A model generated the notes under the pieces. The model made no database searches. It was not told the DNA's origin and was given only the letters and a program-made list of their open reading frames with translations. From the IMG/VR virus record IMGVR_UViG_3300017732_000002: a stretch of 64,000 bases of DNA. One strand, 5' to 3'. Shown piece after piece: positions 2,003-55,969 of this stretch (the stretch's first letter is position 1; each line of letters opens with the position of its first letter). The position numbers and the translations under genes are program-made. Source of the stretch: an uncultured virus (IMG/VR IMGVR_UViG_3300017732_000002) (Duplodnaviria > Heunggongvirae > Uroviricota > Caudoviricetes).

Positions 2003-2010
2003 TATTTATA
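2003..2010 (-). promoter_or_regulatory. T4-type late promoter TATAAATA for iscU
   Basis: Exact gp55 consensus 4 nt upstream of ATG. Confidence 0.7.
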
Positions 2011-2011
2011 T

Positions 2012-2048
2012 AAAAAAATAGGGGAGTTTCTTTAAAGACTAAACTCCC
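2012..2048 (-). terminator. intrinsic terminator
   Basis: GGGAGTTT-N11-AAACTCCC hairpin followed by CTATTTTTTT on minus strand. Confidence 0.75.
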
Positions 2049-2830: not shown

Positions 2831-2836
2831 GTGTAT

Positions 2837-2866
2837 AGGCTAACATTAAAATAGGGTCATTGTCAA
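2837..2866 (-). promoter_or_regulatory. early sigma70-type promoter (class E)
   Basis: TTGACA-N18-TAGCCT-N6-ATG; same motif recurs at 48713, 51557, 51744. Confidence 0.75.
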
Positions 2867-3175
2867 GCGCTTTTCCGCTATTTTTTGACCTATTTTCTCT
2901 GCTTCAACCTCGTCTATCCCTTGCCTGGCAAGGACTTGACGGACATGCACCATTTCATGTGCAAGGGTTATCTCCCTTTCATCGTCTAATTTGACATATA
3001 TTGATATATCTCTTAGTTTTCCGTGTATTGGGTACTCAATATAACCTTGTTTTGGGTGTGGGTGTGGTAGGCGATAGATATGTACACGAATCTTCCGAGA
3101 ATCCTGAATACCTAACTCTCTTGCGTAGTAACAAGCACTCTCTTTCAGTGCTTTATATCTACTGTAGACCCTCAT
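2846..3175 (-). CDS. small zincin-like metallopeptidase
   Basis: TLAHEMVHVRQ HExxH motif with downstream E. Confidence 0.65.
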   Translation of the reverse strand: MRVYSRYKALKESACYYARELGIQDSRKIRVHIYRLPHPHPKQGYIEYPIHGKLRDISIYVKLDDEREITLAHEMVHVRQVLARQGIDEVEAEKIGQKIAEKRLTMTLF

Positions 3176-3338
3176 TTAACTCAATCACTCTTTCTTTCTT
3201 ATACCATATTTTACTGTAAACTTTTGTACTTCTCCACTTTCCGTCTACCATTTCTTCTATGACCCACCTAGGAGTTCCGAATGGACTCCTGTCACGCATA
3301 AGACGTGCTTTCTCTTTCTGTAATATCAATAATCTCAT
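3159..3338 (-). CDS. hypothetical protein (59 aa)
   Basis: Hand-found ORF MRLLILQKEKARLMRDRSPFGTPRW..., fills gap with TAATG coupling. Confidence 0.55.
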   Translation of the reverse strand: MRLLILQKEKARLMRDRSPFGTPRWVIEEMVDGKWRSTKVYSKIWYKKERVIELNEGLQ

Positions 3339-4042
3339 TAGAAATATCTACCTAACCATTTGCTTAATCTTTTGAATGATTCGTCTTCGGGATTGTATAC
3401 TTTAACAGGTGGTATTTGTGCTACCTCTTTTTTGACATAGTCATATGGTTTGTCTAAGTAATCAAACCAATTTATCATGTACATATCATCACATAATTTT
3501 GCACGTTGTTGTGCTTCTCTGATATATCTTCTGACTTTACGGAATCTTTTGAAACTGAGGGACATGACTTTTAGTTGAAATAACCATGAGATAATTTTAA
3601 ATCCTCTTTGGTATGCTTGATTTATCTCAAATTCTATTCTACAAAGTTCACCTATTCCGTCCTGTCCATAATCTGTCATTATGTGTGATACGTCATGTAA
3701 ATCCATATTCCAATAAGCATATGCCATGTTTGGATTAGGTGGTACATGTAAACTTGTTATGTCACTTGTTTTATCCCAGTTACCAAGAAACTCTTGTCTT
3801 ACTGCACCAACTGTACCTTTCTTAAATTTCTTATTTAATGGTAGTCTCTCACCTTTTAGATATCTTTTACCTTGAGGAGTTTCTTGCCATTCCTCAATTA
3901 TCTTTTTATATCCCTTACCGTTAAATGCGACATTTATCTCAACATAGGCCTGTGTGTCACCTTTGTTTTTTATAAGACGTTTGATTGCAGATATCCCTGC
4001 AGGTATATTAATTTCGTAGGCTTTGTAGACTTTTTCAGGCAT
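3338..4042 (-). CDS. Coq4-family (ubiquinone biosynthesis COQ4-like) protein
   Basis: GTVG ... DLHDVSHIMTDYGQDGIGE matches the HDxxH-x11-E metal motif of Coq4 proteins. Confidence 0.65.
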   Translation of the reverse strand: MPEKVYKAYEINIPAGISAIKRLIKNKGDTQAYVEINVAFNGKGYKKIIEEWQETPQGKRYLKGERLPLNKKFKKGTVGAVRQEFLGNWDKTSDITSLHVPPNPNMAYAYWNMDLHDVSHIMTDYGQDGIGELCRIEFEINQAYQRGFKIISWLFQLKVMSLSFKRFRKVRRYIREAQQRAKLCDDMYMINWFDYLDKPYDYVKKEVAQIPPVKVYNPEDESFKRLSKWLGRYF

Positions 4043-4199
4043 TTCTTAACTTTTCTCCACACTTTGGACACTTCAATGGGATATCAAGCAGTTTTGTGGC
4101 CGCATAATGTTTATCCCATTCCTCATCTATATTTATGACTGGTATGTCATGGAACATTTCTGACGGTAACGGGAATCCTATATGCTCAGTCTTCTTCAT
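4035..4199 (-). CDS. small hypothetical protein with CPKC motif (54 aa)
   Basis: Hand-found ORF MKKTEHIGFPLP...LKCPKCGEKLRNA. Confidence 0.55.
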   Translation of the reverse strand: MKKTEHIGFPLPSEMFHDIPVINIDEEWDKHYAATKLLDIPLKCPKCGEKLRNA

Positions 4200-4338
4200 C
4201 TATTTCTTCGAGTTGACCTTCGTCAATCTCAGCACCACAATAAGGACAATGCTGGATTGGATAATGGTGTTCGTCCATTTCAGAATATATCTCACATTCT
4301 GATTGACAATCTGTACAAAAAAGTTTAATTAAACTCAC
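4186..4338 (-). CDS. small zinc-ribbon protein (50 aa)
   Basis: GTG start; CTDC...CPYCG pairs and acidic tail. Confidence 0.65.
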   Translation of the reverse strand: MSLIKLFCTDCQSECEIYSEMDEHHYPIQHCPYCGAEIDEGQLEEIDEED

Positions 4339-4666
4339 TGTTGTATGTTCCCTCTTCTTTTACTAGGTAATTAGGTTTGTTGATTAAATGTGGCAATTCT
4401 AAATGTTTGCATATATTCTCGTAAGACTTAACCTTCCCATTCAATGTCACGAATGGTAAAGGCGTTTCCCCAATATCTTTGTATGTAAAATCTAAACCGC
4501 ATATGTAAATCCTTACTTCGTTTTCTACCCTATCTACGGTATCAAGCATATGTCTGTATCTGTCACAGTATACGTCTTGTTCCCTTTCAGTAGGAAGATA
4601 TAATTTATAACTGTCCACCTTTATGTAGTCCTTCAAGTTCAGTGTATCCACCGATATTTTCTTCAT
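4325..4666 (-). CDS. hypothetical protein, possibly degenerate glutaredoxin fold
   Basis: ORF track; GLDF...PLPFVTLNGK resembles the Grx cis-Pro region but has no CxxC. Confidence 0.45.
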   Translation of the reverse strand: MKKISVDTLNLKDYIKVDSYKLYLPTEREQDVYCDRYRHMLDTVDRVENEVRIYICGLDFTYKDIGETPLPFVTLNGKVKSYENICKHLELPHLINKPNYLVKEEGTYNSEFN

Positions 4667-4835
4667 TAACTATAATTTGTGGAAAGGTTCTGGCGCCAGG
4701 AAATTGTTCCAATACGTCTTCTCTCTGAAAGTCTTCTCCTAACTGTTTATATATAAAATCATATCCATTAGTTTCACATAGTCTCTTTGCCATGTCACAG
4801 TATGGACACTGTGTTTTTCCCCATATCTCTATCAT
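4605..4835 (-). CDS. glutaredoxin (NrdC-like)
   Basis: CPYC active site, ARTFPQI, IGGY motifs. Confidence 0.92.
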   Translation of the reverse strand: MIEIWGKTQCPYCDMAKRLCETNGYDFIYKQLGEDFQREDVLEQFPGARTFPQIIVNEENIGGYTELEGLHKGGQL

Positions 4836-5398
4836 TTGTTACTGTACTCCATGTTTATTTTAGAATGGTGTTCTTCGTCTGCTCTAACTTTCTTAATTAA
4901 GTCAGATAGTTTAGCACTCTTCTTCATTTTATAATAATCGATAGCGAGTTGTGGTGCAGGTATATTCTCTACTTCTCCACTCTCTACCAGTCTTAAATAC
5001 TCAGTGTATGATTTGACTGCTTCTTGTTCAAAGTATGCAATCATTCTATGTGCAGTTCTAAAGTCCACTATGTAAACTAAGAAGTAAAACAACATAAAAA
5101 TCATTTGTGCAAACAAAACTAGGTATCTTTCAAACCAGTTTGGATTTGCAATTTCTATGAAAAACATTAGGTGCATTCTTTCATTCTCTGCTTCTGCTAA
5201 CATTTCTCGTATCTGAGGCCCCCAACCAGTCTTCATTTTCCTGAGACTTTTGAGGTGTAACCACATACCAGCAACCATGCCTGGCACTCCTGCAACTGTT
5301 TCTAATACAACTGCTCTGTGTCCGTATCTATTTGCAAAAAATGTATCCGCAATGAAACGGAAAAACTTGGTCATGGATTTTGCAAATATATCTCTCAT
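4832..5398 (-). CDS. aox: alternative oxidase (ubiquinol oxidase, AOX)
   Basis: LETVAGVPGMVAGM, EAENERMHL, YFEQEAVKSY, RADEEHH diiron motifs. Confidence 0.93.
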   Translation of the reverse strand: MRDIFAKSMTKFFRFIADTFFANRYGHRAVVLETVAGVPGMVAGMWLHLKSLRKMKTGWGPQIREMLAEAENERMHLMFFIEIANPNWFERYLVLFAQMIFMLFYFLVYIVDFRTAHRMIAYFEQEAVKSYTEYLRLVESGEVENIPAPQLAIDYYKMKKSAKLSDLIKKVRADEEHHSKINMEYSNK

Positions 5399-5838
5399 TT
5401 CAATTCTGTTTCTATAAATTTACCGAGAGTTTGTATGTCTTGTTCTGATAACATTCCTGCCTGTCCCCACATAGTGGCTGACATAGCACCAACTTGTTCC
5501 CCATTCTTATACTGAGTCAATCTATTTATTATGTAATCTGAACTCTGTCCTGCGAGTCTAGGGAATGATGCGATACCTTGTCCTTCTTGACCATGACAGG
5601 CGGCACAACCTGCCCATAAACTTCTAATTGAACTGAACTCGTCTGCGTTTGCGAGTTCTTGTTTTGCTCTGAGTTGTTCTACTACTGTTCCATTGACTCT
5701 TACATACTCTTCATAACATTCACCTGAACAATTACTGTTTCTTGAATAACCTTTATATTCTAAGTCGGGATAGATAACCGTAGCGAAAAAGAGTGCAAGC
5801 AAAGTGCACCCAAATAATACCATTCCTAATTCTCTCAT
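5395..5838 (-). CDS. membrane-anchored class I cytochrome c (c553/c4-like)
   Basis: N-terminal TM, CAACHG heme motif, FPRLAGQ, distal Met in MWGQA. Confidence 0.9.
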   Translation of the reverse strand: MRELGMVLFGCTLLALFFATVIYPDLEYKGYSRNSNCSGECYEEYVRVNGTVVEQLRAKQELANADEFSSIRSLWAGCAACHGQEGQGIASFPRLAGQSSDYIINRLTQYKNGEQVGAMSATMWGQAGMLSEQDIQTLGKFIETELK

Positions 5839-32195: not shown

Positions 32196-32497
32196 TTTTT
32201 CTCCTCGCTTCTTGCGACTTGTTCTTCTAGGAGTTCTACTAGAATATCTCCCATGAGGTTATTTAGGTCATTGTCTTTTTCTAAATCTGACAAGTCCATA
32301 CCTTCGGGAACTCTTCTAATAGTTCTCTGAAAATTTAGTTCAGGTTTTCCTTCTACGAATTCCACCTTTCCATATTGATAAACGGTGTCTTTGAATTCAC
32401 CCTTTATAATTTCTATAGCATAGTGTTCTTCGTCCCTTTGATTAGGATTCTCTACTACTCTATACATTTCACCAATTAAATGTGGTCTGTTACTCAA
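32192..32497 (-). CDS. conserved T4-like hypothetical protein
   Basis: IEIIKGEFKDTVYQYGKV..LNF..MGDILVELLE. Confidence 0.7.
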   Translation of the reverse strand: MSNRPHLIGEMYRVVENPNQRDEEHYAIEIIKGEFKDTVYQYGKVEFVEGKPELNFQRTIRRVPEGMDLSDLEKDNDLNNLMGDILVELLEEQVARSEEKK

Positions 32498-33060
32498 TGC
32501 AATTCTCCTTTTTGAAATGACTTCATTTCCTGTACACCTTTATAATTATGGTGTGCTTGAATTGTCATGTCTGCTATTTCTATTTCAGGATAACTTGTAA
32601 TCAACCTATAAACCAGTCCAGCAACTTCTTGACGTGAGATACTAGGCATAGGTGAATTAAGAAGACCTAGATTTAAAGTTGTCATTTTGTATTTTTTATC
32701 TGAGTTGTATTGTAGGTTATTTGCTAAATGATTGAGAGACGCTTTAGCAGCTGAATAGAGATAACCTTTTGATATGTTTGGTTGAGCAGCTCTTGAAGAA
32801 AAATTAATAATATATTTGTTTCCTTTATCTACCCAAGAATCATGTGCGTATTGAAGTATCTTTGTTTGTTCAAATTCGTCATGTGCAAAATTAATCAAAA
32901 CGTCAACATTAGCCCAACCCCACCAGTTCATACCATTCATTGTGATATCTTCCATACGTGGTGTATGTACTTCTATAGTATCACCTTTAAATGGTGTTGC
33001 TTCTAGTGTGTCTTTAATTGTCTTTGCTAGACCACTACTTCCTGTTATTGCTACTTTCAT
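32494..33060 (-). CDS. short-chain dehydrogenase/reductase (compact SDR)
   Basis: VAITGSSGLA Rossmann loop, INFSS, YSAAK (YxxxK). Confidence 0.85.
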   Translation of the reverse strand: MKVAITGSSGLAKTIKDTLEATPFKGDTIEVHTPRMEDITMNGMNWWGWANVDVLINFAHDEFEQTKILQYAHDSWVDKGNKYIINFSSRAAQPNISKGYLYSAAKASLNHLANNLQYNSDKKYKMTTLNLGLLNSPMPSISRQEVAGLVYRLITSYPEIEIADMTIQAHHNYKGVQEMKSFQKGELH

Positions 33061-33958
33061 AATATTCTTTTACCAAATCAAAAGACGGTTTGCCGAACAG
33101 TGAACCGTCTACACTGCATTTATTACAAGGTGATTGACTTCTATCACCTTTCATTAATCTTTTACGAATCTTTGTCATAGGTTTACTGAACCAAACGTCA
33201 TGTAATGTTGACTGTAGCAAGTTACCTACAACATGTTCTCTCCCCCAATCGTTTGAACAAAATAGAACATCACCGTTCCAATCAACAAACATTTTGTAGA
33301 AGGGGTAATGACAAGGTTTGCCTTTCAAAGAAGTAATGTCTGTTTCTTCTATCCCAACCCAGTCAATTACCCCACTACGGTTATTGAGAATCAATCCATG
33401 TTTCTCAAAGTCTCCCCAATGCATTCTAAATTTATACATATCTTCTCTGACATTCTTTAGCATTTTTTCAAAGTGTGTCATTTGTTCTATACCGTCATAC
33501 AAATTTATGTACAGTAAATCTAGTCCTGCTTTATACAATCTTTCAACATACTTTTCTGTAAGTTTGTCTCCATTTGTATTACATTCAATTGTTGCCATTG
33601 GTAAATTAAATCTAAACTCTTTAACTATCTCTACAAAGTTTGGATTCAATAAATTTTCTCCGAACCCACTGAATGATATTTTACCTGAATACTGATTTTC
33701 TCCTAATTCTTCTGCAATGGTTCTAGCACCTTTAATCGTAAGATGGAGATTCCTGTTGGGAAATACTGTTGGGTCATGTCTTGGACAAAAGACACATGTC
33801 CTGTTGCACAACTCAGTAGTATTAATTTCAACTGTAAGAATCGAGTCAAGAGGTTTGAGTTCATTACTTTTTTTATTCCAATGTTTTTCTTCTTGTTTCC
33901 TTCTGTGTTCTAGGAAATCATATTGGTCAACTGCCTGTGTTGGTATGTTTCTACTCAT
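33035..33958 (-). CDS. radical SAM enzyme with SPASM/Twitch domain
   Basis: CNRTCVFC (CxxxCxxC), SGFGENLL, TNG; C-terminal CHYPF..GDVLFC..GNL..PCNKC. Confidence 0.9.
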   Translation of the reverse strand: MSRNIPTQAVDQYDFLEHRRKQEEKHWNKKSNELKPLDSILTVEINTTELCNRTCVFCPRHDPTVFPNRNLHLTIKGARTIAEELGENQYSGKISFSGFGENLLNPNFVEIVKEFRFNLPMATIECNTNGDKLTEKYVERLYKAGLDLLYINLYDGIEQMTHFEKMLKNVREDMYKFRMHWGDFEKHGLILNNRSGVIDWVGIEETDITSLKGKPCHYPFYKMFVDWNGDVLFCSNDWGREHVVGNLLQSTLHDVWFSKPMTKIRKRLMKGDRSQSPCNKCSVDGSLFGKPSFDLVKEYYESSNNRK

Positions 33959-33966: not shown

Positions 33967-34040
33967 TGGAGCGGAGAGATAGGATTGCACTATCGTCTCT
34001 GTGGTGGAACCACAGCGTGTTGCTATTACACTATCTCCGC
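33967..34040 (-). tRNA. tRNA-Gly (anticodon TCC), non-canonical D/T loops, CCA encoded
   Basis: GCGGAGA TA GTGT AATAGCA ACAC G CTGTG GTTCCAC CACAG AGAC GATAG TGCAATC CTATC TCTCCGC TCCA; all four stems pair perfectly; 74 nt. Confidence 0.9.
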
Positions 34041-34045: not shown

Positions 34046-35182
34046 TTATCGGATAATGTCAATGTTTTCTGCATTAACATTCCATGTTTCTAGTTCAGTT
34101 CTGAGTCTGTTTTCGGATTTAAGTTTGTCATATCTTTTACCAGCAAGTTTTTTCCACCAGTCAACTACACCTTCTAACTCGTATCTATCATAGTTGGGTG
34201 CTTTCTTTAATTCGTCTGTTTCTAGATTTAAATAATCCACTACATTCTCATAACCATAATTTGAAAAGTATTGTCTCTTCTGTTCCGTTAGACCTTTTGC
34301 ATTTTCAAATGCTTGATTGAATTCTTTTAACTTTTCTTTGTCGTGTATATTTAGTGAGTTCTTTATCATAGAAATTTGTTTCTGAATAGTCTTCATTTTT
34401 CTTGACGAAGCGTCATCATGAACTAATGGTTTACCGTCATTTTTAGTTTCAAACCAATACTTCAAGTCTCTATAGTTTTGGTCATTAATAGAAGGCACAA
34501 AATCTGATACGGTCAATCCTTTAAATCTTAAGAAAGGTTTCATACCGTCATACTGTGAAGAAGTCTTTGACGAACCGTATAAAGAAGTTGTTTCAAAACC
34601 ACAAAATTTTGTATTGTATTTTTTGTTTAATGTTCTTCTAGCATGGTGTGAACAACATATAGCTGCAAGTAACTTACCACCAAGATAATTATATCCAAAT
34701 GGTTGAGTAGGGACAATGGTGAATCCCATAATAACCGAATCATTGAACCTCTTCATTGTATCTTTACACATAGTATCTAAAGGTTTACCTAACATAACAT
34801 TTCTAGGTTTAGAATTAATTGTTGGTGAACCGAATCTAATAAAACCCATAATCTTGTTTGTGTTTTTTTCATACACAACCCACTTCAATGTCTTGCCAGG
34901 AATTGACTTCTCTAAAGCATGAGACGTGGTGATTTCTAGGTAGTTATCATATAGGTCATTTGATAAGACTCTACATTCAAATTCCATGTCATGAGGGTGC
35001 ATTGTGAAGTCACTAAACATATCATCTTCTGGCCCCATGCCAGGCAATGACGTTGGTAGATTAGCAACACGTTCTAATTTGATTTTACGTAGATAATCGT
35101 CAATACGGTCAAACCCATTATAGAAATCTATATAGATTTGCGAGGCGTAAAGAGAATCTTCTTTAGATAGAATTACAGACAT
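34046..35182 (-). CDS. DUF4338/DruA-family protein (Mom-like GNAT fold, inferred)
   Basis: GKTLKWVVYE..KIMGFIRFGSP..KPRN..LG, IVPTQPFGYNYLGGKLLA, FETTSLYG, SQYDG..FLRFKGLT. Confidence 0.75.
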   Translation of the reverse strand: MSVILSKEDSLYASQIYIDFYNGFDRIDDYLRKIKLERVANLPTSLPGMGPEDDMFSDFTMHPHDMEFECRVLSNDLYDNYLEITTSHALEKSIPGKTLKWVVYEKNTNKIMGFIRFGSPTINSKPRNVMLGKPLDTMCKDTMKRFNDSVIMGFTIVPTQPFGYNYLGGKLLAAICCSHHARRTLNKKYNTKFCGFETTSLYGSSKTSSQYDGMKPFLRFKGLTVSDFVPSINDQNYRDLKYWFETKNDGKPLVHDDASSRKMKTIQKQISMIKNSLNIHDKEKLKEFNQAFENAKGLTEQKRQYFSNYGYENVVDYLNLETDELKKAPNYDRYELEGVVDWWKKLAGKRYDKLKSENRLRTELETWNVNAENIDIIR

Positions 35183-35188
35183 ACACCT

Positions 35189-35226
35189 ATTATACTAAAC
35201 AAGCGTATGTCTGTATAGTGGGTTTT
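35189..35226 (-). promoter_or_regulatory. class M promoter for the DUF4338-tRNA-rSAM-SDR unit (leaderless)
   Basis: AAAAACCCA-CTATAC-N18-TATAAT-N6-ATG. Confidence 0.7.
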
Positions 35227-35751: not shown

Positions 35752-35948
35752 ATTGAAATAATTGTATTTATTTCAATATCATGATATGTAGGTTCGTGTA
35801 TGCCCATAACTACAATCTTATCTCCCATAGTCTGAAACTTTTTTTCTACAGTGCAGGCAAGGGTGTGTATTTTGTTTGAAGTTAATGATTGATATTCTAC
35901 TGTCATTTCTTTTTGATATAATTTGTCTTGGACTTCTTTGAATGTCAT
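35730..35948 (-). CDS. hypothetical protein
   Basis: ORF track, ATGA overlap with cyclase. Confidence 0.6.
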   Translation of the reverse strand: MTFKEVQDKLYQKEMTVEYQSLTSNKIHTLACTVEKKFQTMGDKIVVMGIHEPTYHDIEINTIISIKPLEKL

Positions 35949-37795
35949 TTCTTTAGTTTTCTAATTGTGCGTTTAAAGTATGGTGCGTAAATGGTAACAG
36001 GTTCTTCTTTACCTTTTACAGTTATTTTATCAAGTTCTTTTACTTTGATATCGTCAGGCAATTGGTCAAGTGTGTATTGTGAAAGGATAATAGGTGTATC
36101 AAATGTTCTTGTTTGAACTTCAAGACGTGCACCTAGATTAACTGCATCACCGACAACTGAATAATCGAATCTTGCCTCACTTCCCATGTTTCCTACGATG
36201 CATGGGCCAGTATTTATTCCTGTGCCAATTACAACGGGTGGTAAATCATATCCCTGTTCTTTGAGTTCCTTGTTCATTTGTTCAGTAAGCAGTTCAATTT
36301 CCATAGCACTTCTAACCGCCATTTCAGCGTGGTTTGGACAATCCAAAGGGGCATTCCAAAATGCCATCAAACAATCGCCCATATATTTGTCGATGGTTCC
36401 GCCATGTGCAAGAACGACTTTTGACATTGCGTCTAGGAATTTGTTGATAAGTTCAACCAATCCTTCGGGGTCATCTTCTTTCATATACTTTTCGCTTATG
36501 GGAGTGAAGCCAACAATGTCGGCAAAAAGGAAGGAAAGTTCCTTTCTATCTCCACCTAATTTCAATAGTTCAGGATTTTTCTGTAGTTCTTCAACCATGT
36601 CAGGCGATAAATATTTTTGGAACTGTTTCTTTATTTGTTCTTTCAATTGATACGTAGTGAAGTATTTGTTGAAAGATGCGTGACCAAAAACTAACAATGA
36701 GGCAACTGATGAGTAAAAGACATCGAGCAAAATCAAGTTCTCAATCCAAACGTAATACCCCGTATACGCCTGCAATCCAACGACACTTAGACTCCCTATC
36801 CCCGAAAGAACTGTGGGAAGTCTGTAGACCATTGCCAGTATTACTAGAGACGAAAACAGAACAAGAAAAATTTCAAGAAATTCAAGATAGTAGAATCGTT
36901 GTATTTGGAATCCTGTCAAGACGGTCTGAATTAAATTCGCTTGTACTTCATGGGGATACATTGCACCCATTGGGGTTGAAACTGGATTACTCAGACCTGA
37001 AGCAGTCAAACCCCATATAAGGATTTTATCTGCAGGGATTTTGTCCACTGCACTGACACGTTCAAACTGATTCCAAAATGCAATATTAAAGTCTGCATTA
37101 GGTTGTACTGTTAATGGTGGTAGTCTACCTATCCTAACCCATTCTACACCAACCTCAGGCGTAATCTTTATATTGTAGGACTGTTGACCATTCATAACTC
37201 TCAATGTTTCTAGTGCGAGAGAAGGATATATCTGTCCATTCGCCATGACAGCGAGTGGAACTGCACGTACAGTTCCGTCTATAGAAGGTGAAGCACTTAC
37301 AGTACCTACACCGTAAACCGCCTCCTGTAGGGGTTGTATGGGACTAGAGATACCCTCATAACTGTATAACCAGTTTGCAGGGTCACCTTTACCTAACTTT
37401 GCAATACCAATATATGGTGCACTTCCAGTATCTTTTTGATTAGTTGGTGAGGCAGAAAGAAGGGAAAGTCTGTTTCCTAATGCTTGTCTAAGTTCTTCGT
37501 CTTCCCCGAATCTATCAGGTTGTGCAAATGTAGCAGTAAGGACGGAAGGATTTGTTTCGGACGTTTGATTTATCATGTCTGCCCATACGCCTCTAGGGAA
37601 TGGGAACTGTCCGTATTTTTCTAATGTCTTTTCGTCTATGTCAACTAATACAATATCGTCAACCTGTATAGGTTCCTTTTGAGTTTGTAAAAAGTCAAAA
37701 TAGTTGAGTCGGATTGACTCCATGAGAAACGGGTCTGATATACGAAGACCTGCTAGAAGAGCGATGGTTATTAAAACCGTCCACCATTTATACAT
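35945..37795 (-). CDS. CHASE2-domain class III adenylate/guanylate cyclase
   Basis: IVLVDIDEKTL..GQFPFPR, DGTVRAVPL, YPSLALE, TP.G.M.PHEVQAN, 3 TM, FADIVGFT, IDKYMGD, GDAVNLGARLE, VKGK. Confidence 0.93.
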   Translation of the reverse strand: MYKWWTVLITIALLAGLRISDPFLMESIRLNYFDFLQTQKEPIQVDDIVLVDIDEKTLEKYGQFPFPRGVWADMINQTSETNPSVLTATFAQPDRFGEDEELRQALGNRLSLLSASPTNQKDTGSAPYIGIAKLGKGDPANWLYSYEGISSPIQPLQEAVYGVGTVSASPSIDGTVRAVPLAVMANGQIYPSLALETLRVMNGQQSYNIKITPEVGVEWVRIGRLPPLTVQPNADFNIAFWNQFERVSAVDKIPADKILIWGLTASGLSNPVSTPMGAMYPHEVQANLIQTVLTGFQIQRFYYLEFLEIFLVLFSSLVILAMVYRLPTVLSGIGSLSVVGLQAYTGYYVWIENLILLDVFYSSVASLLVFGHASFNKYFTTYQLKEQIKKQFQKYLSPDMVEELQKNPELLKLGGDRKELSFLFADIVGFTPISEKYMKEDDPEGLVELINKFLDAMSKVVLAHGGTIDKYMGDCLMAFWNAPLDCPNHAEMAVRSAMEIELLTEQMNKELKEQGYDLPPVVIGTGINTGPCIVGNMGSEARFDYSVVGDAVNLGARLEVQTRTFDTPIILSQYTLDQLPDDIKVKELDKITVKGKEEPVTIYAPYFKRTIRKLKK

Positions 37796-37800
37796 AGATT

Positions 37801-38289
37801 TTACCTATAGAATATATGTGCGGATATTTGTACTGTCTCGTTTAAATGCTGACTCCAATATGGTTGTATATAATACGCATGATACCACATTGCACCTTCT
37901 GTCAAATCAAAATACTGACCGTCCAGTATTTCGTCTGCAAGTTTTAAACTCTCCGCCCAAGTTTTACTGTCTTTTGGTTTGTCTGATTTGCCATCACAAA
38001 ACCAAGAGAACTGACACATTCCTAATTTAGGAATGGTCTTACCTGTCCAAGAGGTTCGCCATTCTTTTGTTTGATAAACTACTCCACAAATTGAATCGGG
38101 AAATTTATCATGTTCTACACGATTTAAAACTACGTTAGCAACTGCAATCTGTCCTGCAAGAGGTTGATTACCTGCTTCAAAATATATGTTTTGAGCAAGA
38201 CAATGAGTGTCCATCTCTAGTTCTAAACCTTCCACTTTTGTAGCTCCTAAAAGAAGCGCACAAAATACTAAGATATTTATTAGTTTCAT
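37801..38289 (-). CDS. cell wall hydrolase (SleB/Hydrolase_2)
   Basis: CLAQNIYFEA, AVANVVLNRV, FPDSICGVVYQ, CQFSWFCDG, HIFY; signal peptide. Confidence 0.92.
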   Translation of the reverse strand: MKLINILVFCALLLGATKVEGLELEMDTHCLAQNIYFEAGNQPLAGQIAVANVVLNRVEHDKFPDSICGVVYQTKEWRTSWTGKTIPKLGMCQFSWFCDGKSDKPKDSKTWAESLKLADEILDGQYFDLTEGAMWYHAYYIQPYWSQHLNETVQISAHIFYR

Positions 38290-38296
38290 ATACACT

Positions 38297-38336
38297 ATTA
38301 TACCTCAATGTTTGAGTAATTATAAGAGGGTTTTTT
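38297..38336 (-). promoter_or_regulatory. class M promoter for hydrolase-cyclase
   Basis: AAAAAACCCT-CTTATA-N18-TATAAT-N7-ATG. Confidence 0.65.
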
Positions 38337-38338
38337 AT

Positions 38339-39007
38339 TTAGTTGCCCTGAGAAACGTTTATACTGCAACCACCTACTGTATGGCAGGTATTTGTTATAT
38401 TGTATGACTGATTAGTCGAACCTTGTTGTAATAGATTTAAATTAGTATGTTCTGAACCTTGTAGTGTTATTCTTGCTTGATGACTACCACTTCCTTTTTG
38501 TTCAATATCTGTGATTGAATCATGTGAATTTTGATAATAGTATATGTGTGCGTAATGACTTCCTGAACCTTCTTGCCAGTTTTCGTGTTCTACACCATTA
38601 ACGTGAATGTCTAAATTGAATTCGTGAGTTCCATTTTGGTAAACGTCAACTTCGTTATTGTTACCCCATATGTGTCTACCGTATGTAGCACCGTCAATCT
38701 GTGTTACTGTTTCTGTGTTACCAGTACCGTCAACATCACCACCCCAAGTTCTTCCTGAACCCCAGTATGATACCCAAGAGATTGAGTTACCATTCCCTGA
38801 TTGGGATAGAGTAAAAGTGTTGTTAGCATGTGCAAAAGTAAAATCGATATGGTTATCATATCCTATCTGCGTAATGTTAACATTTGCATTATCACCGTCA
38901 GCAACTTGGTCTATGTGCACATGATTATGTTCGTCACCAGCAAAGCACTGTCCTACAAAGAACAATAAAATTACTGCAATCCCTAAATGAGTTCCAGTTA
39001 TTTTCAT
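38339..39007 (-). CDS. curlin-repeat protein (CsgA/CsgB-like)
   Basis: Signal peptide; repeats N-x-V-x-I-x-Q-x-G-xx-N (NVNITQIGYDN, TFTLSQSGNGN, NLLQQGSTN); track start 39046. Confidence 0.75.
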   Translation of the reverse strand: MKITGTHLGIAVILLFFVGQCFAGDEHNHVHIDQVADGDNANVNITQIGYDNHIDFTFAHANNTFTLSQSGNGNSISWVSYWGSGRTWGGDVDGTGNTETVTQIDGATYGRHIWGNNNEVDVYQNGTHEFNLDIHVNGVEHENWQEGSGSHYAHIYYYQNSHDSITDIEQKGSGSHQARITLQGSEHTNLNLLQQGSTNQSYNITNTCHTVGGCSINVSQGN

Positions 39008-39144
39008 TCTTGATTGTGACGTGGGTCTTGTTGTTGTTTTATCCACTCTTCTATTCTTTTTTGTTGTTCTGCAATTGTTTCTGCTTGGTCTTTAATTTTC
39101 TTTTCTTGAAATCTAAGTCTTTGCTGTTGTTGTTTTTGGCTCAT
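39004..39144 (-). CDS. small Gln/Lys-rich coiled-coil protein (46 aa)
   Basis: Hand-found ORF MSQKQQQQRLRFQEKKIKDQAETIAEQQKRIEEWIKQQQDPRHNQE; TAATG and ATGA coupled. Confidence 0.55.
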   Translation of the reverse strand: MSQKQQQQRLRFQEKKIKDQAETIAEQQKRIEEWIKQQQDPRHNQE

Positions 39145-40277
39145 TAATTTTGTTGTGTAATAATAATATTGATTGCTTGGTCGCCACCCATATTAATTAC
39201 ACTCTCCTTTTCGTTAGTTACGGTCACTATTTGTGCCATTGCGTCTACTGGTAATTTAATACTTATGGTTCCGTTTACTTCACGATAGAACGTAACCAAT
39301 CCACTTCCTGTATCAACTATTGTATTGTACTGCGTGTCTTTATCAAAACCTATAGCAGTACCTTCTATTCCAAATGTATTTCCACCACTGTCTGCAGTTC
39401 TGTTTATCCCTACTTTCCTATCTAACTCTTCTACAATATCAAGTAAGTCCTGTAAAAAGTCAACATCTAATAGGTCTATATCTAATTCAGTAAATTCTAA
39501 TTCACCTTCTGAGTCTTTCAATGCGTCTGCATCAAGACCGTCAAACTCTAAAAAGTCTACGTCCAAGATACCACCGTCATTTGATTCTGTAGCAGACTCC
39601 TCTATCACCCTAGAAATATCTTTGGGTTGACTCACAATAAACATATTATTAATCAAACTTGATGTAATATTGTTTATTACTACAGGTGCAGTTGGGTATG
39701 AATTTAAAGTAGATACCATTGTGGCTTGATATGCTTCTTCTAATACTACGTCTGTACCCGATTCATTACTAACTGTAATCGAACCTGATGCGTCACCATT
39801 TGCGTCAGGCAAAAGTATAATAAGACTTCGCCCGAGTTCATCGATGGTTGTCGTAAAATCTGTGCCATTAATCGCTATGTTAGCAGTTGGCGTAGAAATC
39901 GCAATGTTCGATTTATTCATTTTACCTAGTTTACCTGAGGCAAAACGAGCTGTACCCATTACCATTCTCATCGACATTTTCGATAAGTCGGGATTAGGGT
40001 CATAATATACTTCGTCTATGTAGACCAGTGTATGTTCTGTTAATGCAAGTTCTTCTTCGTCTAAGAACTCAATTAGCATTCTCCCATTCCCAGTTTCCGC
40101 CTCGTCATAGAGGTTTATACTAGGAAAATCAGTAGAGGGTATTTTATTACCTTCTCTGATAATGTTTCCAATACCAGTTTGTTCGACTATGTCTCCTATC
40201 GTATCCGCATAAGAGGGATACGACAGAAGTATAGCACTAATCGTTAGTATCTTTTTGGTTAATTGTAACTGTAGCAT
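39144..40277 (-). CDS. exported FecR-domain protein with acidic C-terminal region
   Basis: Signal peptide; YDEAETGNGRMLIEFLD..LTEHT..ID..YDP..GTARFASG..TPTANIAINGTDF. Confidence 0.85.
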   Translation of the reverse strand: MLQLQLTKKILTISAILLSYPSYADTIGDIVEQTGIGNIIREGNKIPSTDFPSINLYDEAETGNGRMLIEFLDEEELALTEHTLVYIDEVYYDPNPDLSKMSMRMVMGTARFASGKLGKMNKSNIAISTPTANIAINGTDFTTTIDELGRSLIILLPDANGDASGSITVSNESGTDVVLEEAYQATMVSTLNSYPTAPVVINNITSSLINNMFIVSQPKDISRVIEESATESNDGGILDVDFLEFDGLDADALKDSEGELEFTELDIDLLDVDFLQDLLDIVEELDRKVGINRTADSGGNTFGIEGTAIGFDKDTQYNTIVDTGSGLVTFYREVNGTISIKLPVDAMAQIVTVTNEKESVINMGGDQAINIIITQQN

Positions 40278-40962
40278 TATCAGAACTCAACTGTAAGTCA
40301 ATCTTGCCTGGGCATGTTTTATTTCCACATGTACCTGACTGTTGAATAATATCCATATTGATACTATCACCCGTATGAACCACTTTTAATTCATGGTCAG
40401 ATGCGTCAAGTTGTTTTGTGTCAACGTTATTACTGTCACCAGTAATTTCCATTTCCCATTTAGCTTGGTCTGAATCTATGTCTATAAAGAAATCGTTTGA
40501 ATCTCCTATTAGCGTTAAATCAAAATCCAAATAGTTAGCACTAGCGGCATAACCTTGGTCATAATCCCAAGTGTTACTGCTACCTGTAACTGCGACATTG
40601 ATGTTTGAGTTATCAGAATCACCAGTATCGCCTATATTCCAATCAAAGATATTACTGTCACCAGTGAATACCATATTAATGGTAGAACTATCTAACACAA
40701 CAGGCCCGAATAGTTGGTTGCTGTTACCGATTTGGTCAAGGTTGAACGTATTCGTTGTACCTGTCAAAATCATATCAGTAGCAACCTGACCGTTTACTAT
40801 AGTTCCACCGAATTTATTTCCGTAACCAACTTGGTCAATCGTTAATGTTAACGTATCACCTGATTGTTGCAAAAATATTTCGTTGTCGTCATCAGCTAAA
40901 AGAGGCATTACAGACATTGCAAACAATAAACCTAAACATAATTTTAGTTTATTCATTTTCAT
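40237..40962 (-). CDS. curlin-repeat protein (CsgA/CsgB-like)
   Basis: Signal peptide; DNEIFLQQSG, IDQVGYGN, LDQIGNSN, then repeated xTGDSN; track start 41007. Confidence 0.75.
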   Translation of the reverse strand: MKMNKLKLCLGLLFAMSVMPLLADDDNEIFLQQSGDTLTLTIDQVGYGNKFGGTIVNGQVATDMILTGTTNTFNLDQIGNSNQLFGPVVLDSSTINMVFTGDSNIFDWNIGDTGDSDNSNINVAVTGSSNTWDYDQGYAASANYLDFDLTLIGDSNDFFIDIDSDQAKWEMEITGDSNNVDTKQLDASDHELKVVHTGDSINMDIIQQSGTCGNKTCPGKIDLQLSSDNATVTINQKDTND

Positions 40963-41857
40963 ATTCGTCTTTATTCTCCTCGATGGCATGTCTTTCATTA
41001 CCGCCATCTATTTTATGAGGGTGTCTATGTCGGCCGTCAATTGTCCAGTATTTTCTATCGTGTCCTTGATAAATCATTTCTAGAACAGCAGCTTCTATAG
41101 CAGCCCTCGTTGCAAAAGTCACCGACTCATTCTCTGTCACACCGTCCTCAATTTCAATGAGTTGGGTATCCATATCTACAAATTTAAATACATCGAATCC
41201 TTGCGATACACTTAGTACAGTCTTCTTGGTCTGAACGTTCATAAGAACTTCACCAGTAAGTGTACTAACTGCTCTTAAAGAAACGACAATCGTATCTCTA
41301 CGATAAGCAGTCGAGTGTCCAATCCCTAATGTTCTTGCACCTCGGCCACCAGTTTCCATATTGGTATCATACCCTATAATTCCACCTTCGAGTATGATGC
41401 CAGCAAATAAAAGAGGTTGAATAGTTTCTTTACTTTCACCCTCTTCTTGAAATTGTTCTCTTGTACTTCTGACTATTTGTCTTTCACGTACAAGATTATC
41501 TAATCCTTCTCTTTCAACTACACGGAACCAACTTCCACCCCCTGCAGTTTTGAGTGCGTCTATCAACATTGCAGTCACTCCTTGACTGACTGCTGTACTA
41601 AATGTTGCGACACCGTCTTGTCTTTTTCTTTGTCCTGTTAGGTCTTTAAACCCATAAACAGCAACCACTGGCATAACCTCAGCGGCTGGTAAATCTAATA
41701 ATAATGCATATGCTGGAAGTTTGATTGCTTCAGGCTCTTCAATACATTCTCCGTACTCATTCATTATCAGAGATGTACAGGAATCTTTCATGTGCGGTAT
41801 CCCTGCACAACTAGATAGCAAGAGTCCGAGCACTCCAACTAATAAAAGATTCTTCAC
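40949..41857 (-). CDS. csgG: curli secretion pore CsgG
   Basis: Lipobox LSSC; VAVYGFKDLTGQRK, FSTAVSQG, WFRVVEREGLDNLVRERQIVRSTR, EGGIIGYD, GG.GAR.LGIG. Confidence 0.95.
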   Translation of the reverse strand: MKNLLLVGVLGLLLSSCAGIPHMKDSCTSLIMNEYGECIEEPEAIKLPAYALLLDLPAAEVMPVVAVYGFKDLTGQRKRQDGVATFSTAVSQGVTAMLIDALKTAGGGSWFRVVEREGLDNLVRERQIVRSTREQFQEEGESKETIQPLLFAGIILEGGIIGYDTNMETGGRGARTLGIGHSTAYRRDTIVVSLRAVSTLTGEVLMNVQTKKTVLSVSQGFDVFKFVDMDTQLIEIEDGVTENESVTFATRAAIEAAVLEMIYQGHDRKYWTIDGRHRHPHKIDGGNERHAIEENKDEYENE

Positions 41858-42348
41858 TAAAAACCCCCAGTACCAATTGGAATTTCAATAGTTGTTGTAG
41901 TTCCGTCACTACCGACAATTGTCATTACAATCCAATCGTCACATAGTCCGTCATCAGTACATATGTTCTTCCTTTCGTAAGTAATTGTATTTCCTTCCAG
42001 TGTAAACGTTCCGTAGTTTGCACCTTCTTCGTTTGAGAACATGTTTTCAACTAACTGTTTTGATAGCTGAGCATAGATTCTCGATTCCAAATTCCTTATG
42101 AATTTGGCTAAAACTGTATTTTCTGCTTCTCTTTGCTGTTTCAAAAGAGCTGCCCTAATGTCCTCAGCAATCTTGTCTGTCCTAGACTTCTCCTGATTCT
42201 CAATTGTCAAGTAATGGGCAGAAGTTCCCACGCCACTAAAGCTGGGGTTTTTAAATTTATGTACCAGTTCGTCTGATTGTACTGTCGGAGAAATGACACA
42301 TAGTGTTATCATTGCAAATGTTATACCAAAAATTTTACTTCTTTTCAT
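41857..42348 (-). CDS. csgF: curli assembly factor CsgF
   Basis: Signal peptide then ELVHKFKNPSFSG; FIRNLESRIYAQLS; adjacent to csgG. Confidence 0.88.
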   Translation of the reverse strand: MKRSKIFGITFAMITLCVISPTVQSDELVHKFKNPSFSGVGTSAHYLTIENQEKSRTDKIAEDIRAALLKQQREAENTVLAKFIRNLESRIYAQLSKQLVENMFSNEEGANYGTFTLEGNTITYERKNICTDDGLCDDWIVMTIVGSDGTTTTIEIPIGTGGF

Positions 42349-52382: not shown

Positions 52383-52960
52383 AATCTCAATGTTTCTTCA
52401 TTCTGTGTTAAATCAGTAATTGCGTGAAAAGGCATACACCTATCTTGATTATCGGAAAACCAAAATGAAAGAGTATGTCGTTGGTTTCTTCGTATCTTGT
52501 TTACACCATGTTCTATGTAAATGCCTTGAAACAATAATCCTGCACCTGTTTCAGGAACAAAAGTTTCTCCGTTAGGTACATAAGTTTCACCACCTGAGAA
52601 ATTATCATTTAAATATAAAATACAAGTCCACTCTCTTTGTTTTTCGTTGGGGTCAAAGTTTGGTAAGTGTTCTGACTGCGTAGAGTAAGTATCTAAATGT
52701 GGGTCTTGATATCCACCAATAACCCATTCATTGATTCCAATCATTTCGGGATAAACAATTTTACCTTGGGTTTTATAAACTTGAGCAACTAATCGTATCC
52801 AAACTCTATCTATTAGAGTTCGTACCCATTGTGTTTGGACATGACAAAATCTTATACCCTTGTAACCAGCACCGTTTCCTACGGTTCTTAAGTTATGATG
52901 CGTTTTGTGAAAGTGTATTATCTGTTGGCACTCGTTCGGAGTCAACAGATTTTTCAGCAT
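52379..52960 (-). CDS. 2OG-Fe(II) oxygenase (tandem paralog)
   Basis: PHLD, ILYLND.FSGGE, HGVNKI..QRHT; shares HFHKTH with neighbour; track start 53002. Confidence 0.85.
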   Translation of the reverse strand: MLKNLLTPNECQQIIHFHKTHHNLRTVGNGAGYKGIRFCHVQTQWVRTLIDRVWIRLVAQVYKTQGKIVYPEMIGINEWVIGGYQDPHLDTYSTQSEHLPNFDPNEKQREWTCILYLNDNFSGGETYVPNGETFVPETGAGLLFQGIYIEHGVNKIRRNQRHTLSFWFSDNQDRCMPFHAITDLTQNEETLRL

Positions 52961-53504
52961 TTGCGGTTCGTAGGGCTTCTGCGATTGCTCTGCGTTGTTC
53001 ATATTCTAATCTCTTTGCTCTTTCTTTTGGTCTTGATTTTAGAGCACGTTCTATTTTTAATTGTGATGCACGTTGTAAAAATATAATACCATTTAAGTGG
53101 TCTATTTCATGTTGCACACACCTTGCACCCAATCCTTCTAACTTTATTGAACGTTTTTCACCGTCAACTGTTTGGTAGTCCATTACAACTACTTTTGGTC
53201 GCTTGAGCATAATATATATGTCGGGAAAAGAAAGACAACCTTCCTTCATCATTTCTGTTTCTTGAGATATCTGAACTAACTCAGGATTGAAAAATGCAAC
53301 GATTCCTTCGTCCTGTGTTTGCATAACAAAAACACTCAGGTCTACACCGACTTGATTAGCACTTAAACCAAGTCCACCATATTTTCCCATGGTTTCTACG
53401 AGACCTGCTTGTAATTCTTTTGGGTCTGTTTGCGGATTATCGAAATCAAACTTTTCAGTAGGATTACGTAAGACCTTTGCGGCCTCTTCAACTAGTTCAT
53501 ACAT
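52893..53504 (-). CDS. def: peptide deformylase
   Basis: GLGLSANQVG, EGCLS, QHEIDHLNG. Confidence 0.95.
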   Translation of the reverse strand: MYELVEEAAKVLRNPTEKFDFDNPQTDPKELQAGLVETMGKYGGLGLSANQVGVDLSVFVMQTQDEGIVAFFNPELVQISQETEMMKEGCLSFPDIYIMLKRPKVVVMDYQTVDGEKRSIKLEGLGARCVQHEIDHLNGIIFLQRASQLKIERALKSRPKERAKRLEYEQRRAIAEALRTANAEKSVDSERVPTDNTLSQNAS

Positions 53505-53505
53505 A

Positions 53506-54888
53506 TTATTTTATTCCACTACTGGTTACATATAAAGATTTACCTGACCAACCCCCTGCTTGTCTAGTTCTTAAAACAACTGGCATGGTTGCGTCAATCT
53601 TTAAAGGTTTATAATGCCAAGACAACTTAAACGTTTGTTGTTTACCGTCATACGAAGATTTTATTTTACTAAAATCACTAGCATTATCTGACATTAACAT
53701 TTGTCTAAAACTGTCGTCTCCACTAACGTCTTTAATTGTTGAACCCTTCTCACTACCTATCAATAGTTTATATGGACATGGTGTTGAATTAGGGTCGTCA
53801 TATGTATAGTAACCTATAGTATTCAAAAAGTATAGTAGGTTTCTTGGTGAAGAAACATATTTTGAAAAGTCGTCTAGTAAAGCATTCCTAAAAGGCCAAT
53901 AGAAATCTTTTGAATAGAAATCTAATTTATCTTTTTGGAATTCTTTTGCTATTGTAGCGAATGCTCTTTGTGAAGAGGACTCACTATACTTTTCTTTCTT
54001 GATATTAAATGAGTTGATTGCTTTGTGAGCATTCTTATATTTGGGGTCTATCATGGAAGTCGCTTTGACCCATGCGTTATCAATCATAGATTTAATTCTA
54101 CCAAGTTGTCCCTTATCTCCTACTTTAGAATAGAATGCAACTAAGTTTGTATTGATTTTAGGTGTAGCGTCTGCACCACCTGATATCTTGTTAGAGTATC
54201 CTTGATATCCGTCTGCAGTTTGAACGATAACGTCCGAAGGATTCTTACCACCTATCCCTGCAGGTTTACCTCTTGGAACCCAATATACATTTTTGATTGA
54301 CCTTCCTTTTAAATCTTTTGCAACTGCTTTTGCATTGTTCATTCCGATTAGAATATCTCTCAATGAAGTTTCGTCTTTATCTAATAACATAACTATGTCT
54401 TCATAGGTGACTTCTTTTCCTGAACCTGCAAGAACTCCTGTTCCGCCACTTTGTCCTGCAACCCATTTCTCAAAGTCAAATTGATTTTGAATTTGGTCGG
54501 GGTGTATTAAGAAGTGTACGGTTAGTAATTCATTCACGTTGGAAGAAGCAGTTGAATCCTTTCTACTCTTACTTCCAAAGTGTGCTTTGACTTTTGCTTT
54601 AGTTGATTGAATGTAATACGGAGTATCAGAACCGTCTAGTTCTACTTGAAAATAGTATTTACCATTACCTAATTTTTTGAGAAGTTCACCTGTAGGATTC
54701 TCTACTGATTTATAAAGTATCTTTCCTGCACCTACTGTTGCTTTGACATCTTTATCGTCTATGTCTAGAACATAATAAGGATTGAATCCGTTTCTGTTTT
54801 TGTAGTGTGGTGACACAGTTAACTCACGAATCACATGCTTAGGATTCGTTACGGTAATTTTGTCTGTGAATTGTGAGAAAGACTTCAT
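53506..54888 (-). CDS. late protein with PD-(D/E)xK-like nuclease motifs
   Basis: Start MKSFSQF after TATAAATA-N5; NVNE..., PSDVIV..GYSNK; track start 54978. Confidence 0.6.
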   Translation of the reverse strand: MKSFSQFTDKITVTNPKHVIRELTVSPHYKNRNGFNPYYVLDIDDKDVKATVGAGKILYKSVENPTGELLKKLGNGKYYFQVELDGSDTPYYIQSTKAKVKAHFGSKSRKDSTASSNVNELLTVHFLIHPDQIQNQFDFEKWVAGQSGGTGVLAGSGKEVTYEDIVMLLDKDETSLRDILIGMNNAKAVAKDLKGRSIKNVYWVPRGKPAGIGGKNPSDVIVQTADGYQGYSNKISGGADATPKINTNLVAFYSKVGDKGQLGRIKSMIDNAWVKATSMIDPKYKNAHKAINSFNIKKEKYSESSSQRAFATIAKEFQKDKLDFYSKDFYWPFRNALLDDFSKYVSSPRNLLYFLNTIGYYTYDDPNSTPCPYKLLIGSEKGSTIKDVSGDDSFRQMLMSDNASDFSKIKSSYDGKQQTFKLSWHYKPLKIDATMPVVLRTRQAGGWSGKSLYVTSSGIK

Positions 54889-54893
54889 AATAC

Positions 54894-54901
54894 TATTTAT
54901 A
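54894..54901 (-). promoter_or_regulatory. late promoter TATAAATA
   Basis: TATAAATA-N5-ATG. Confidence 0.75.
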
Positions 54902-54904
54902 TTT

Positions 54905-55969
54905 TCACTTAAGTGGTTTCGATAATTCTTCCCAACTTGTTTCATAATCACTGTCACCTTCTGCGTATCCCATAACACCTAACTTTTCGTATTCAGGTAT
55001 AAGTTCTTCACGCAGTAGTCCAATCTTTTTAAGGTTTGGCATGATTCTAGTAAATAGTATGTCTTGGAATTGTGAGGTAAAGATATTATGTTTTTCGTAG
55101 TCTAATGTATAATCAACGTCAAATCCATACTTTTCCCATACAGCAGTTGGTTTAAGTCTATTTCTACTTACAGTACATGCTTCCAAGGCAAAGTTTGCCC
55201 TGTCTATTTGTTCTTCTTCTGAAAGTGTTTGGACAAAATCAGTTAGATAGTTGATACCAAAAGTTACATGTCTTGCTTCGTCCCTAATGATAAGTCCTAT
55301 CATTTCTTTGTATACAGGGTCGGTACTTGTTTCTCGACTTGCTTGAAAAGCGGCTAATGCTAAACCTTCAATGACAACTTGCATACCTATAAATTTTAAA
55401 TCCCAACGTGGGTCAGTTAAAATTTTATCAAGTAATCCTTTTAGACTTCTACCAATTGGCCATGAACGTTTGAGTCTTGTCTGTAGATATTTGTTAAAAG
55501 CTTCGACATGTCGTGCTTCGTCAAATGTCTGAGAAGCTGCATAGAGTTTTGCATTGAATGTGGGTGCACAACTGGCTAATTGTGACGCAACTAATAATGC
55601 ACCTTGTTCTCCATGAAGGAATTGACTTACTGACCATGAATTTAAATCTTGGTGAAATTCTTCCTTTTCTTCTTGGGTTAATGTTTTGTATTGTTCGTGA
55701 TTCTTCCATTGATTGTCTTGGAATTCAAAGAACTCAGATGTCATTGGTTTGAATGGCGGTGACCAATCAACGTCAACTTCTACATTCCAATTTAACTTCT
55801 TACCTAGTTCGTATAGTTTTTTGATACGATTATCTTGGACTGTGTAGTCCCAATTGTAAGAACCTGTTAAAGGTGTTTGGAATATCTCTACAACGTCTGT
55901 AGGGTTTAGTTCTTCTTTCGCTGGAAAGTCTCGTACTTCTTTGGGTGTTTCTGTTTTTAATATTTGCAT
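54905..55969 (-). CDS. ferritin-like diiron carboxylate enzyme (AurF/R2-like superfamily)
   Basis: LHGEQGAL, DEARHVEAF, IEGLAL, RDEARHV: two ExxH motifs. Confidence 0.85.
   Translation of the reverse strand: MQILKTETPKEVRDFPAKEELNPTDVVEIFQTPLTGSYNWDYTVQDNRIKKLYELGKKLNWNVEVDVDWSPPFKPMTSEFFEFQDNQWKNHEQYKTLTQEEKEEFHQDLNSWSVSQFLHGEQGALLVASQLASCAPTFNAKLYAASQTFDEARHVEAFNKYLQTRLKRSWPIGRSLKGLLDKILTDPRWDLKFIGMQVVIEGLALAAFQASRETSTDPVYKEMIGLIIRDEARHVTFGINYLTDFVQTLSEEEQIDRANFALEACTVSRNRLKPTAVWEKYGFDVDYTLDYEKHNIFTSQFQDILFTRIMPNLKKIGLLREELIPEYEKLGVMGYAEGDSDYETSWEELSKPLK

Follow-up and report, generated by a model that had tools for sequence, protein, structure and literature searches.

A tRNA-Gly(UCC) gene and the gene of a GNAT-fold protein of the DruA/DUF4338 type lie side by side on the minus strand of the window, the 64,000-nucleotide stretch of viral DNA analysed here. 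Our preferred reading of this pair, to which we assign a probability of roughly 0.55, is that the tRNA would be a private phage donor of glycyl groups, kept from EF-Tu and the ribosome, for a Mom-like modification of DNA. The window comes from an 80.7 kb virus contig, 44% complete, from a T4-like marine phage, with gp43, UvsX, gp41, the clamp, the clamp loader, RegA and UvsW encoded on the minus strand. The features on which the argument draws are as follows.

34046 to 35182, minus strand: 378-aa GNAT-fold protein of the DruA/DUF4338 type, Mom-like, the proposed user of Gly-tRNA.
33967 to 34040, minus strand: tRNA-Gly(UCC) with encoded CCA, an odd elbow, a 32-38 pair and a weak T stem.
34021 to 34027, minus strand: D loop AATAGCA, read from the sequence, with A18 replacing G18 and G19 retained.
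34004 to 34010, minus strand: anticodon loop G32-U33-UCC-A37-C38 (anticodon at 34006-34008), in which G32-C38 could make a 6-bp stem.
33978 to 33994, minus strand: T arm, read from the sequence, with G49-C65, A50-U64 and U51-A63 and the loop UGCAAUC (G55).
33035 to 33958, minus strand: radical SAM/SPASM gene, which starts 8 nt after the tRNA and is unlinked to it across phages.

The tRNA was the sole ARAGORN call in the window, made as tRNA-Gly(TCC) on the minus strand, at the place given in a preliminary description of this DNA, and no second convincing tRNA was found anywhere in the 80.7 kb contig. Scored separately against Rfam RF00005 it reached 53.6 bits (gathering score 29); a faster Rfam scan of the whole window did not report it. 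Read from the sequence, the acceptor stem is GCGGAGA/TCTCCGC, followed by U73 and the encoded CCA, while the D stem is GTGT/ACAC, the anticodon stem CTGTG/CACAG with the loop G-T-TCC-A-C, and the T stem GATAG/CTATC with the loop TGCAATC. All 21 of 21 stem pairs are Watson-Crick, in agreement with the perfect stems described earlier, and the minimum free energy structure is the cloverleaf, at -26.9 kcal/mol (z -3.9), which none of 200 shuffles equalled. The T loop and the U51-A63 pair were likewise as first described, and the statement that the D loop lacks G18G19 was half right, with G18 lost (A18) and G19 present. Because G19, U54, C56 and A58 are all retained, the change in the window copy comes down to G18/U55 becoming A18/G55, which, judging by the bases, still permits the 19-56 and 54-58 contacts. 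G1-C72, C2-G71, G3-C70, U73 and C35C36 are the identity elements of tRNA-Gly, and all of them are present in the window tRNA along with CCA and the cloverleaf. RNA runs gave low-depth contigs, of which a single one (151 nt, depth 3.9, from one run) spans the tRNA and is uninformative on expression or processing, and a promoter scan found 18 sites against 16 expected. A blastn search with the tRNA against cultured phages gave no useful match, and a literature search for A18-G55 elbow variants found no relevant paper.

Evaluating this tRNA as one of a family, we aligned 32 distinct aberrant tRNA-Gly sequences, hand-chosen from GNAT-linked loci, which revealed a sharp division between fixed and free positions. 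G1-C72, C2-G71, G3-C70, U73, CCA, C35, C36, A37 and C56 are invariant, so that the intact glycyl-tRNA synthetase elements and CCA reported for the window copy hold in 32 of 32 members. The arms diverge freely but with compensation, such that 97.2% of stem cells are paired and double changes occur in 171 cells at 17 of the 22 pairs. None of 500 shuffles scored as high and slid controls were 41-54% paired, though relatedness among the members inflates this control. That the gene is a decaying pseudogene or attachment-site remnant might be supposed from its lost consensus loop bases, but the compensatory changes across 32 distinct sequences contradict it, and we give the idea, which the preliminary description had already doubted from the perfect stems, almost no credence.

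D-loop GG is missing from 28 of 32 members and present in 4, T loops start with TGC in 15, TTC in 11, ATC in 3 and GGC in 3, TTC is thus absent from 21, and both GG and TTC are kept in 4; truncated T arms and shortened D loops also exist. By contrast, positions 32 and 38 form a Watson-Crick pair in every member (CG 14, UA 12, AU 4, GC 2), and G51-C63 occurs in 0 of 32 members versus 17 of 30 sequences in a canonical tRNA-Gly set, whose loose filter admitted a few members of the family. The conserved signatures of the family, as read from this alignment, are therefore pairing between 32 and 38 and weakness of the T stem, and not A18/G55, so the pairing of G32 with C38 noticed in the window copy is borne out by homologs where the conservation expected of A18 and G55 is not. 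The anticodon is TCC in 18 members and ACC in 14, and position 33 is G in 6. A scan of cellular genomes with a tRNA-Gly(ACC) pattern gave at least 120 matches, nearly all of them chance among the matches listed; the one clear tRNA-Gly(ACC) among those listed has a canonical elbow, with no Mom or DruA in the flanks searched.

Several published observations bear on how such a tRNA would behave. In the available text of PMC7826273, EF-Tu affinity rests on pairs 49-65, 50-64 and 51-63, glycine requires a tight tRNA body for EF-Tu, and G51-C63 marks the proteogenic tRNA-Gly of staphylococci; by that account the window tRNA has low-affinity pairs at these three positions on sequence, with U51-A63 at the third. 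The accessible part of PMC7293025 states that tRNA-Gly is never found with A34 and that codon binding is weakened by a 32-38 pair, yet also that Watson-Crick 32-38 is normal in bacterial tRNAs with G34. An invariant synthetase-facing end combined with weak EF-Tu and decoding surfaces suggests to us that the family has been selected to be so. The preliminary view that the tRNA is charged but kept out of translation thus gains comparative support from the invariant acceptor end, C35C36, the free position 34 (A34 included), the 32-38 pair and the absence of G51-C63; a Fem cell-wall transferase is not the likely user.

The closest precedent is the set of staphylococcal non-proteogenic tRNA-Gly species NP1-3 (used with FmhB/FemA/FemB), which likewise have an intact acceptor, a T stem weak in its first three pairs with no G51-C63, and altered D and T loops and which, in the available text of PMC7826273, are proposed to evade EF-Tu and to supply a GNAT-fold transferase. 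Their T stem carries A49-U65, U50-A64 and A51-U63, where the window tRNA has G49-C65, A50-U64 and U51-A63, and the same text calls the NP lineage staphylococcus-only. Unlike them, the window tRNA is phage-encoded, belongs to a family with a fixed 32-38 pair and TCC/ACC switching, and has a DruA/Mom-like GNAT as its partner. We therefore rejected membership in the NP lineage or Fem system, since the T-stem pairs differ and no Fem partner was found, and likewise a Fem or cell-wall use, since no Fem family appeared among the 62 window proteins scanned from a contig that is 44% complete; the gene linked to the tRNA is of the DruA type.

The stop codon of this gene lies 5 nt before the tRNA start. 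Its 378-aa product matches Pfam DruA (PF14236) at 1.4e-8 and 34.7 bits, above the cut-off of 27, as well as phrog_19197, and its predicted model (pLDDT 90.9) has a GNAT fold. When the model was compared with 48,161 chains by VIA-align, Mu Mom (8bv8) ranked first (Z 9.6, rmsd 3.8, 169 aligned), ahead of the next GNATs (Z 9.3, about 143 aligned) by 0.3 Z, which amounts to a tie, and FemA scored Z 8.6. Foldseek gave generic GNATs, with no Mom among the matches listed, hhalign of the protein against 7 Mom proteins was negative (probability 5.9%), no protein scanned in the contig matched PF25680 (Mom), and no sequence-level link to solved structures was found. A 55% identical homologue occurs in cyanophage S-SCSM2R and is named Mom from HHpred in the available text of PMC12801897. 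The 378-aa protein is, going by its predicted model, Mom-like by fold and outside the Mom family by sequence. In every cultured relative inspected, the gene is surrounded by genes of DNA replication, and DruA/DUF4338 GNATs have thousands of relatives. Unlike in Druantia, whose DruA profile (DUF4338) the protein matches, the window gene stands alone in a lytic T4-like replication module, with no other Druantia genes among the proteins scanned. An 18-pair hairpin at 35174-35215 could control expression of the GNAT gene, with whose start it overlaps, as it does with a promoter-like site.

The comparison with Mu Mom (PF25680, PDB 8BV8) matters for what the protein may do. According to the accessible portion of PMC13219725, Mom moves glycine from Gly-tRNA-Gly to adenine in double-stranded DNA and accepts all three E. 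coli tRNA-Gly isoacceptors, and that portion mentions no phage-encoded donor tRNA. The catalytic residues of Mom are R111, S124 and R151. Both proteins have a GNAT fold and are encoded by phages, Mu Mom ranking first, within a tie, among structural matches to the predicted model, and Mom-family genes in other phages have, like the window GNAT, a tRNA-Gly adjoining; unlike Mu Mom, which in the same available text uses host tRNA, the window protein is 378 aa long with no sequence-level Mom match. The substrate cannot be read from a GNAT fold by itself, and with FemA also scoring well and the contig incomplete, the tRNA might instead be a non-ribosomal glycyl donor for an acceptor other than DNA (protein, lipid, cell wall or small molecule), or its user might be encoded beyond the 44% of the genome that the contig covers. 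We consider this improbable, as the gene sits in the replication module of its cultured relatives, HHpred linked a homologue to Mom in what is available of PMC12801897, and no Fem or Mom family occurs elsewhere among the proteins scanned.

To return to the DNA-modification reading, its comparative evidence is that the tRNA follows the GNAT gene. From relatives of the 378-aa gene (58-100% identical) we took 80 viral loci, and a tRNA-Gly lay near the GNAT gene (flanks of at most 4 kb) in 54, 52 found by pattern and 2 more by the model R1, with a canonical elbow in 5 of the 54; loci in these linkage counts are not phylogenetically independent. At least five arrangements occur: downstream of the GNAT gene the tRNA lies at a distance of 9-11 nt, of 564 nt or of about 1.1 kb, and upstream of it either 10-16 nt away or some 600 nt away, in the latter case with a peroxiredoxin gene separating the two. 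The adjacent radical SAM gene was rejected as the partner, because, in a set of 78 new radical SAM loci, all 18 with the GNAT (17 of them from the window's clade) had the tRNA, against 0 of 60 lacking the GNAT. That gene forms a pair with a short-chain-dehydrogenase-like gene (32494-33958) that is common in marine phages without the tRNA.

Of 150 gp43 loci in total, the 39 whose flanks reached 4 kb or more upstream and 1.5 kb or more downstream were counted, and tRNA-Gly occurred in 16 of 25 GNAT-positive loci (14 aberrant, 2 canonical) and in 1 of 14 GNAT-negative loci (canonical, on a flank cut short), with aberrant forms in 0 of 14. A quick gp43 tree showed GNAT-positive and GNAT-negative loci intermixed, with one whole GNAT-positive subclade, plus the single locus L479, having no nearby tRNA. 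On longer contigs, a GNAT-negative close relative (151 kb) had no tRNA-Gly and another GNAT-negative contig (162 kb) canonical ones only, and no tRNA-Gly was found on GNAT-positive contigs of 56, 88 and 124 kb, all incomplete (the 88 kb contig at 60%, the 124 kb contig at 69%).

Searching in the other direction, an acceptor-stem pattern matched at least 119 viral loci, 86 of which were judged tRNA-like; with 7 already found through the GNAT dropped, 79 contigs were left, which were searched whole for GNAT, and the 58 GNAT-negatives then for Mom. Among the matches listed, DruA or Mom was present on 33 of 59 aberrant-tRNA contigs versus 2 of 20 canonical-tRNA contigs, although the canonical contigs were longer (medians 33 versus 21 kb; Fisher p 0.0005, kinship ignored). 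Reduced tRNA-Gly-like genes of 68-70 nt, with the D arm almost gone and a purine-rich T loop, were also seen (loci L110, L116, L136, L145, L150, L154, L164, L171, L180 and L196), some of them paired in tandem with a tRNA-Gly(GCC) of canonical form; a DruA-type GNAT is encoded on 2 of these 10 contigs.

These counts have to be set against the reading in which the tRNA, its elbow relaxed, simply supplements translation in the ordinary way, an unmodified U34 or A34 reading four Gly codons and proximity to the GNAT reflecting replication-module synteny. Unmodified U34 and A34 allow four-way wobble, the window copy retains G19, C56, U54 and A58, and GGT, which the ACC tRNAs read directly, is the main Gly codon (770 of 1353, with GGA at 390, over 67 ORFs). 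Canonical and aberrant tRNAs also substitute for each other at one site: four loci (L007-L009 and L469) with a 94% identical GNAT carry a wholly different, canonical-elbow tRNA-Gly 9 nt after it, the tRNA gene there having been replaced wholesale. Nevertheless, the weak T stem and Watson-Crick 32-38, which by the available texts lower EF-Tu and codon binding, are fixed in the family, members with G33, truncated T arms or shortened D loops fit poorly with decoding, and the tRNA stays near the GNAT through rearrangements and resembles the Mom-linked tRNAs described below, with their bulged T stems and 5-nt loops. We hold this reading to be unlikely, though worth serious attention.

Cultured phages speak to both sides. 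Pelagiphages HTVC008M and Mosig carry the GNAT with an aberrant tRNA-Gly(ACC) 6-8 kb away, so that both cultured GNAT-bearing pelagiphages (2 of 2) have the aberrant form. GNAT-positive cyanophages have a tRNA-Gly in 13 of 14 cases, every one canonical, as a translational supplement would lead one to expect, and 1 has none, versus 6 of 14 among GNAT-negative cyanophages (p 0.013). From these cyanophage counts, the GNAT accompanies the presence of tRNA-Gly, the aberrant form being limited to some lineages and not required. HTVC008M (KC465899.1) has two DruA-type paralogues, at 86194-87129 and 99538-100656, as do relatives G127-G131 and G137; in those of these phages that have the tRNA-Gly, it lies between the two paralogues.

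A parallel case comes from true Mom genes. Pfam Mom genes touch or overlap a tRNA in 8 of 59 acceptor-pattern loci examined, and the N-terminus of Mom is often translated in frame from the 3' half of the tRNA (GGSIPxxPL in several). Of 80 Mom loci, 56 have a tRNA-Gly between -60 and 250 nt from the end of the Mom gene, sharing its strand in 46 cases and convergent to it in 10. This rate overstates the Mom family as a whole, because the query was one Mom protein whose locus was itself linked to a tRNA and because about 25 of the loci are closely related. The 36 distinct Mom-linked tRNAs (TCC 26, ACC 9, GCC 1) include 20 with one additional base on the 3' side of the T stem, and in many of the 36 a 6-bp anticodon stem closes a 5-nt loop; T-stem-bulge forms stand at Mom genes in L081, L088, L105, L118, L127, L134 (tRNA at 3001 or 1952) and L345-L424. 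Five Mom-tRNA contigs of 19-42 kb gave 1-2 Rfam tRNA matches apiece, so the Mom-linked tRNA-Gly is not part of a tRNA cluster. In L086 (17-553), a T-stem-bulge tRNA-Gly is convergent to a generic GNAT (Acetyltransf_1), with no Mom gene. That the Mom family, a proven user of Gly-tRNA, accompanies odd tRNA-Gly genes is, by analogy, the strongest support for reading the window pair alike.

A role in counter-defence or takeover was weighed as well, in which the gene would supply a tRNA-Gly that serves as a decoy or resists attack, out of reach of host anticodon nucleases or of toxins acetylating Gly-tRNA, or that is immune to a phage GNAT inactivating host Gly-tRNA. Hypervariable arms, swapped wholesale between phages with 85-94% identical GNATs, would suit such a role, and GNAT toxins such as TacT use Gly-tRNA-Gly as substrate in the available text of PMC13219725. 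The acceptor end that such enzymes contact is, however, the invariant part, a rescue tRNA would be expected to retain EF-Tu affinity, and true Mom genes show the same pairing, which together leave this a long shot.

Under the DNA-modification reading, host glycyl-tRNA synthetase would charge the tRNA, as the invariant acceptor end and C35C36 suggest, while EF-Tu and the ribosome would use it poorly, to go by a T stem weak at 49-51/63-65, the changes in the D/T elbow, an anticodon stem that can be extended and a position 34 free to vary. The charged tRNA would then be a store of activated glycine set aside for the neighbouring DruA-type GNAT, which, like phage Mu Mom, might move the glycyl group onto a base of the phage DNA during replication, and the glycylated base may shield that DNA from host nucleases. 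Against this stand the narrow Mom lead and failed profile match, the ordinary tRNA-Gly of 13 of 14 GNAT-positive cyanophages, the five canonical-elbow GNAT loci with 94% identical relatives among them, the tRNA-less GNAT-positive contigs and gp43 subclade, and the fact that Mu Mom accepts all host tRNA-Gly isoacceptors, so that a private tRNA is not needed. For the broader proposition we see about even odds, namely that phages have repeatedly evolved dedicated, ribosome-avoiding tRNA-Gly as private co-substrates for DNA-hypermodifying GNATs, a T-stem-bulge class by Mom and, in abundant marine phages of the T4-like kind, an elbow-less, 32-38-paired class by DruA-type genes.

Most known examples of dedicated tRNAs that do not translate come from cell-wall synthesis in staphylococci, and DruA is a component of Druantia defence. 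If our preferred reading is true, the principle of such tRNAs extends to viruses and is tied to DNA modification, Mom-type enzymes have a means of escaping competition with EF-Tu, and some phage tRNA genes are not codon-usage supplements. The broader proposition would also make DruA/DUF4338 proteins aminoacyl-tRNA-dependent DNA modifiers, a testable function, and predicts a new glycine-derived base in HTVC008M and its relatives, very abundant ocean phages; with both parts present in two cultured phages of known host, a direct test is possible. Literature searches, which covered few subscription papers, found none linking phage tRNA-Gly genes to Mom or DruA, and the present analysis adds the covariation of 32 with 38, the controls and the linkage to Mom proper.

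Elsewhere in the window, a CHASE2 adenylate cyclase (Pfam) is encoded within 35945-42348, in a stretch whose ORFs we take to resemble FecR and curli (CsgA/B, CsgG, CsgF) genes. Auxiliary metabolic genes at 1561-5838 and 52893-55969 comprise NifU-like, alternative oxidase, cytochrome c, peptide deformylase and AurF-like oxygenase genes.
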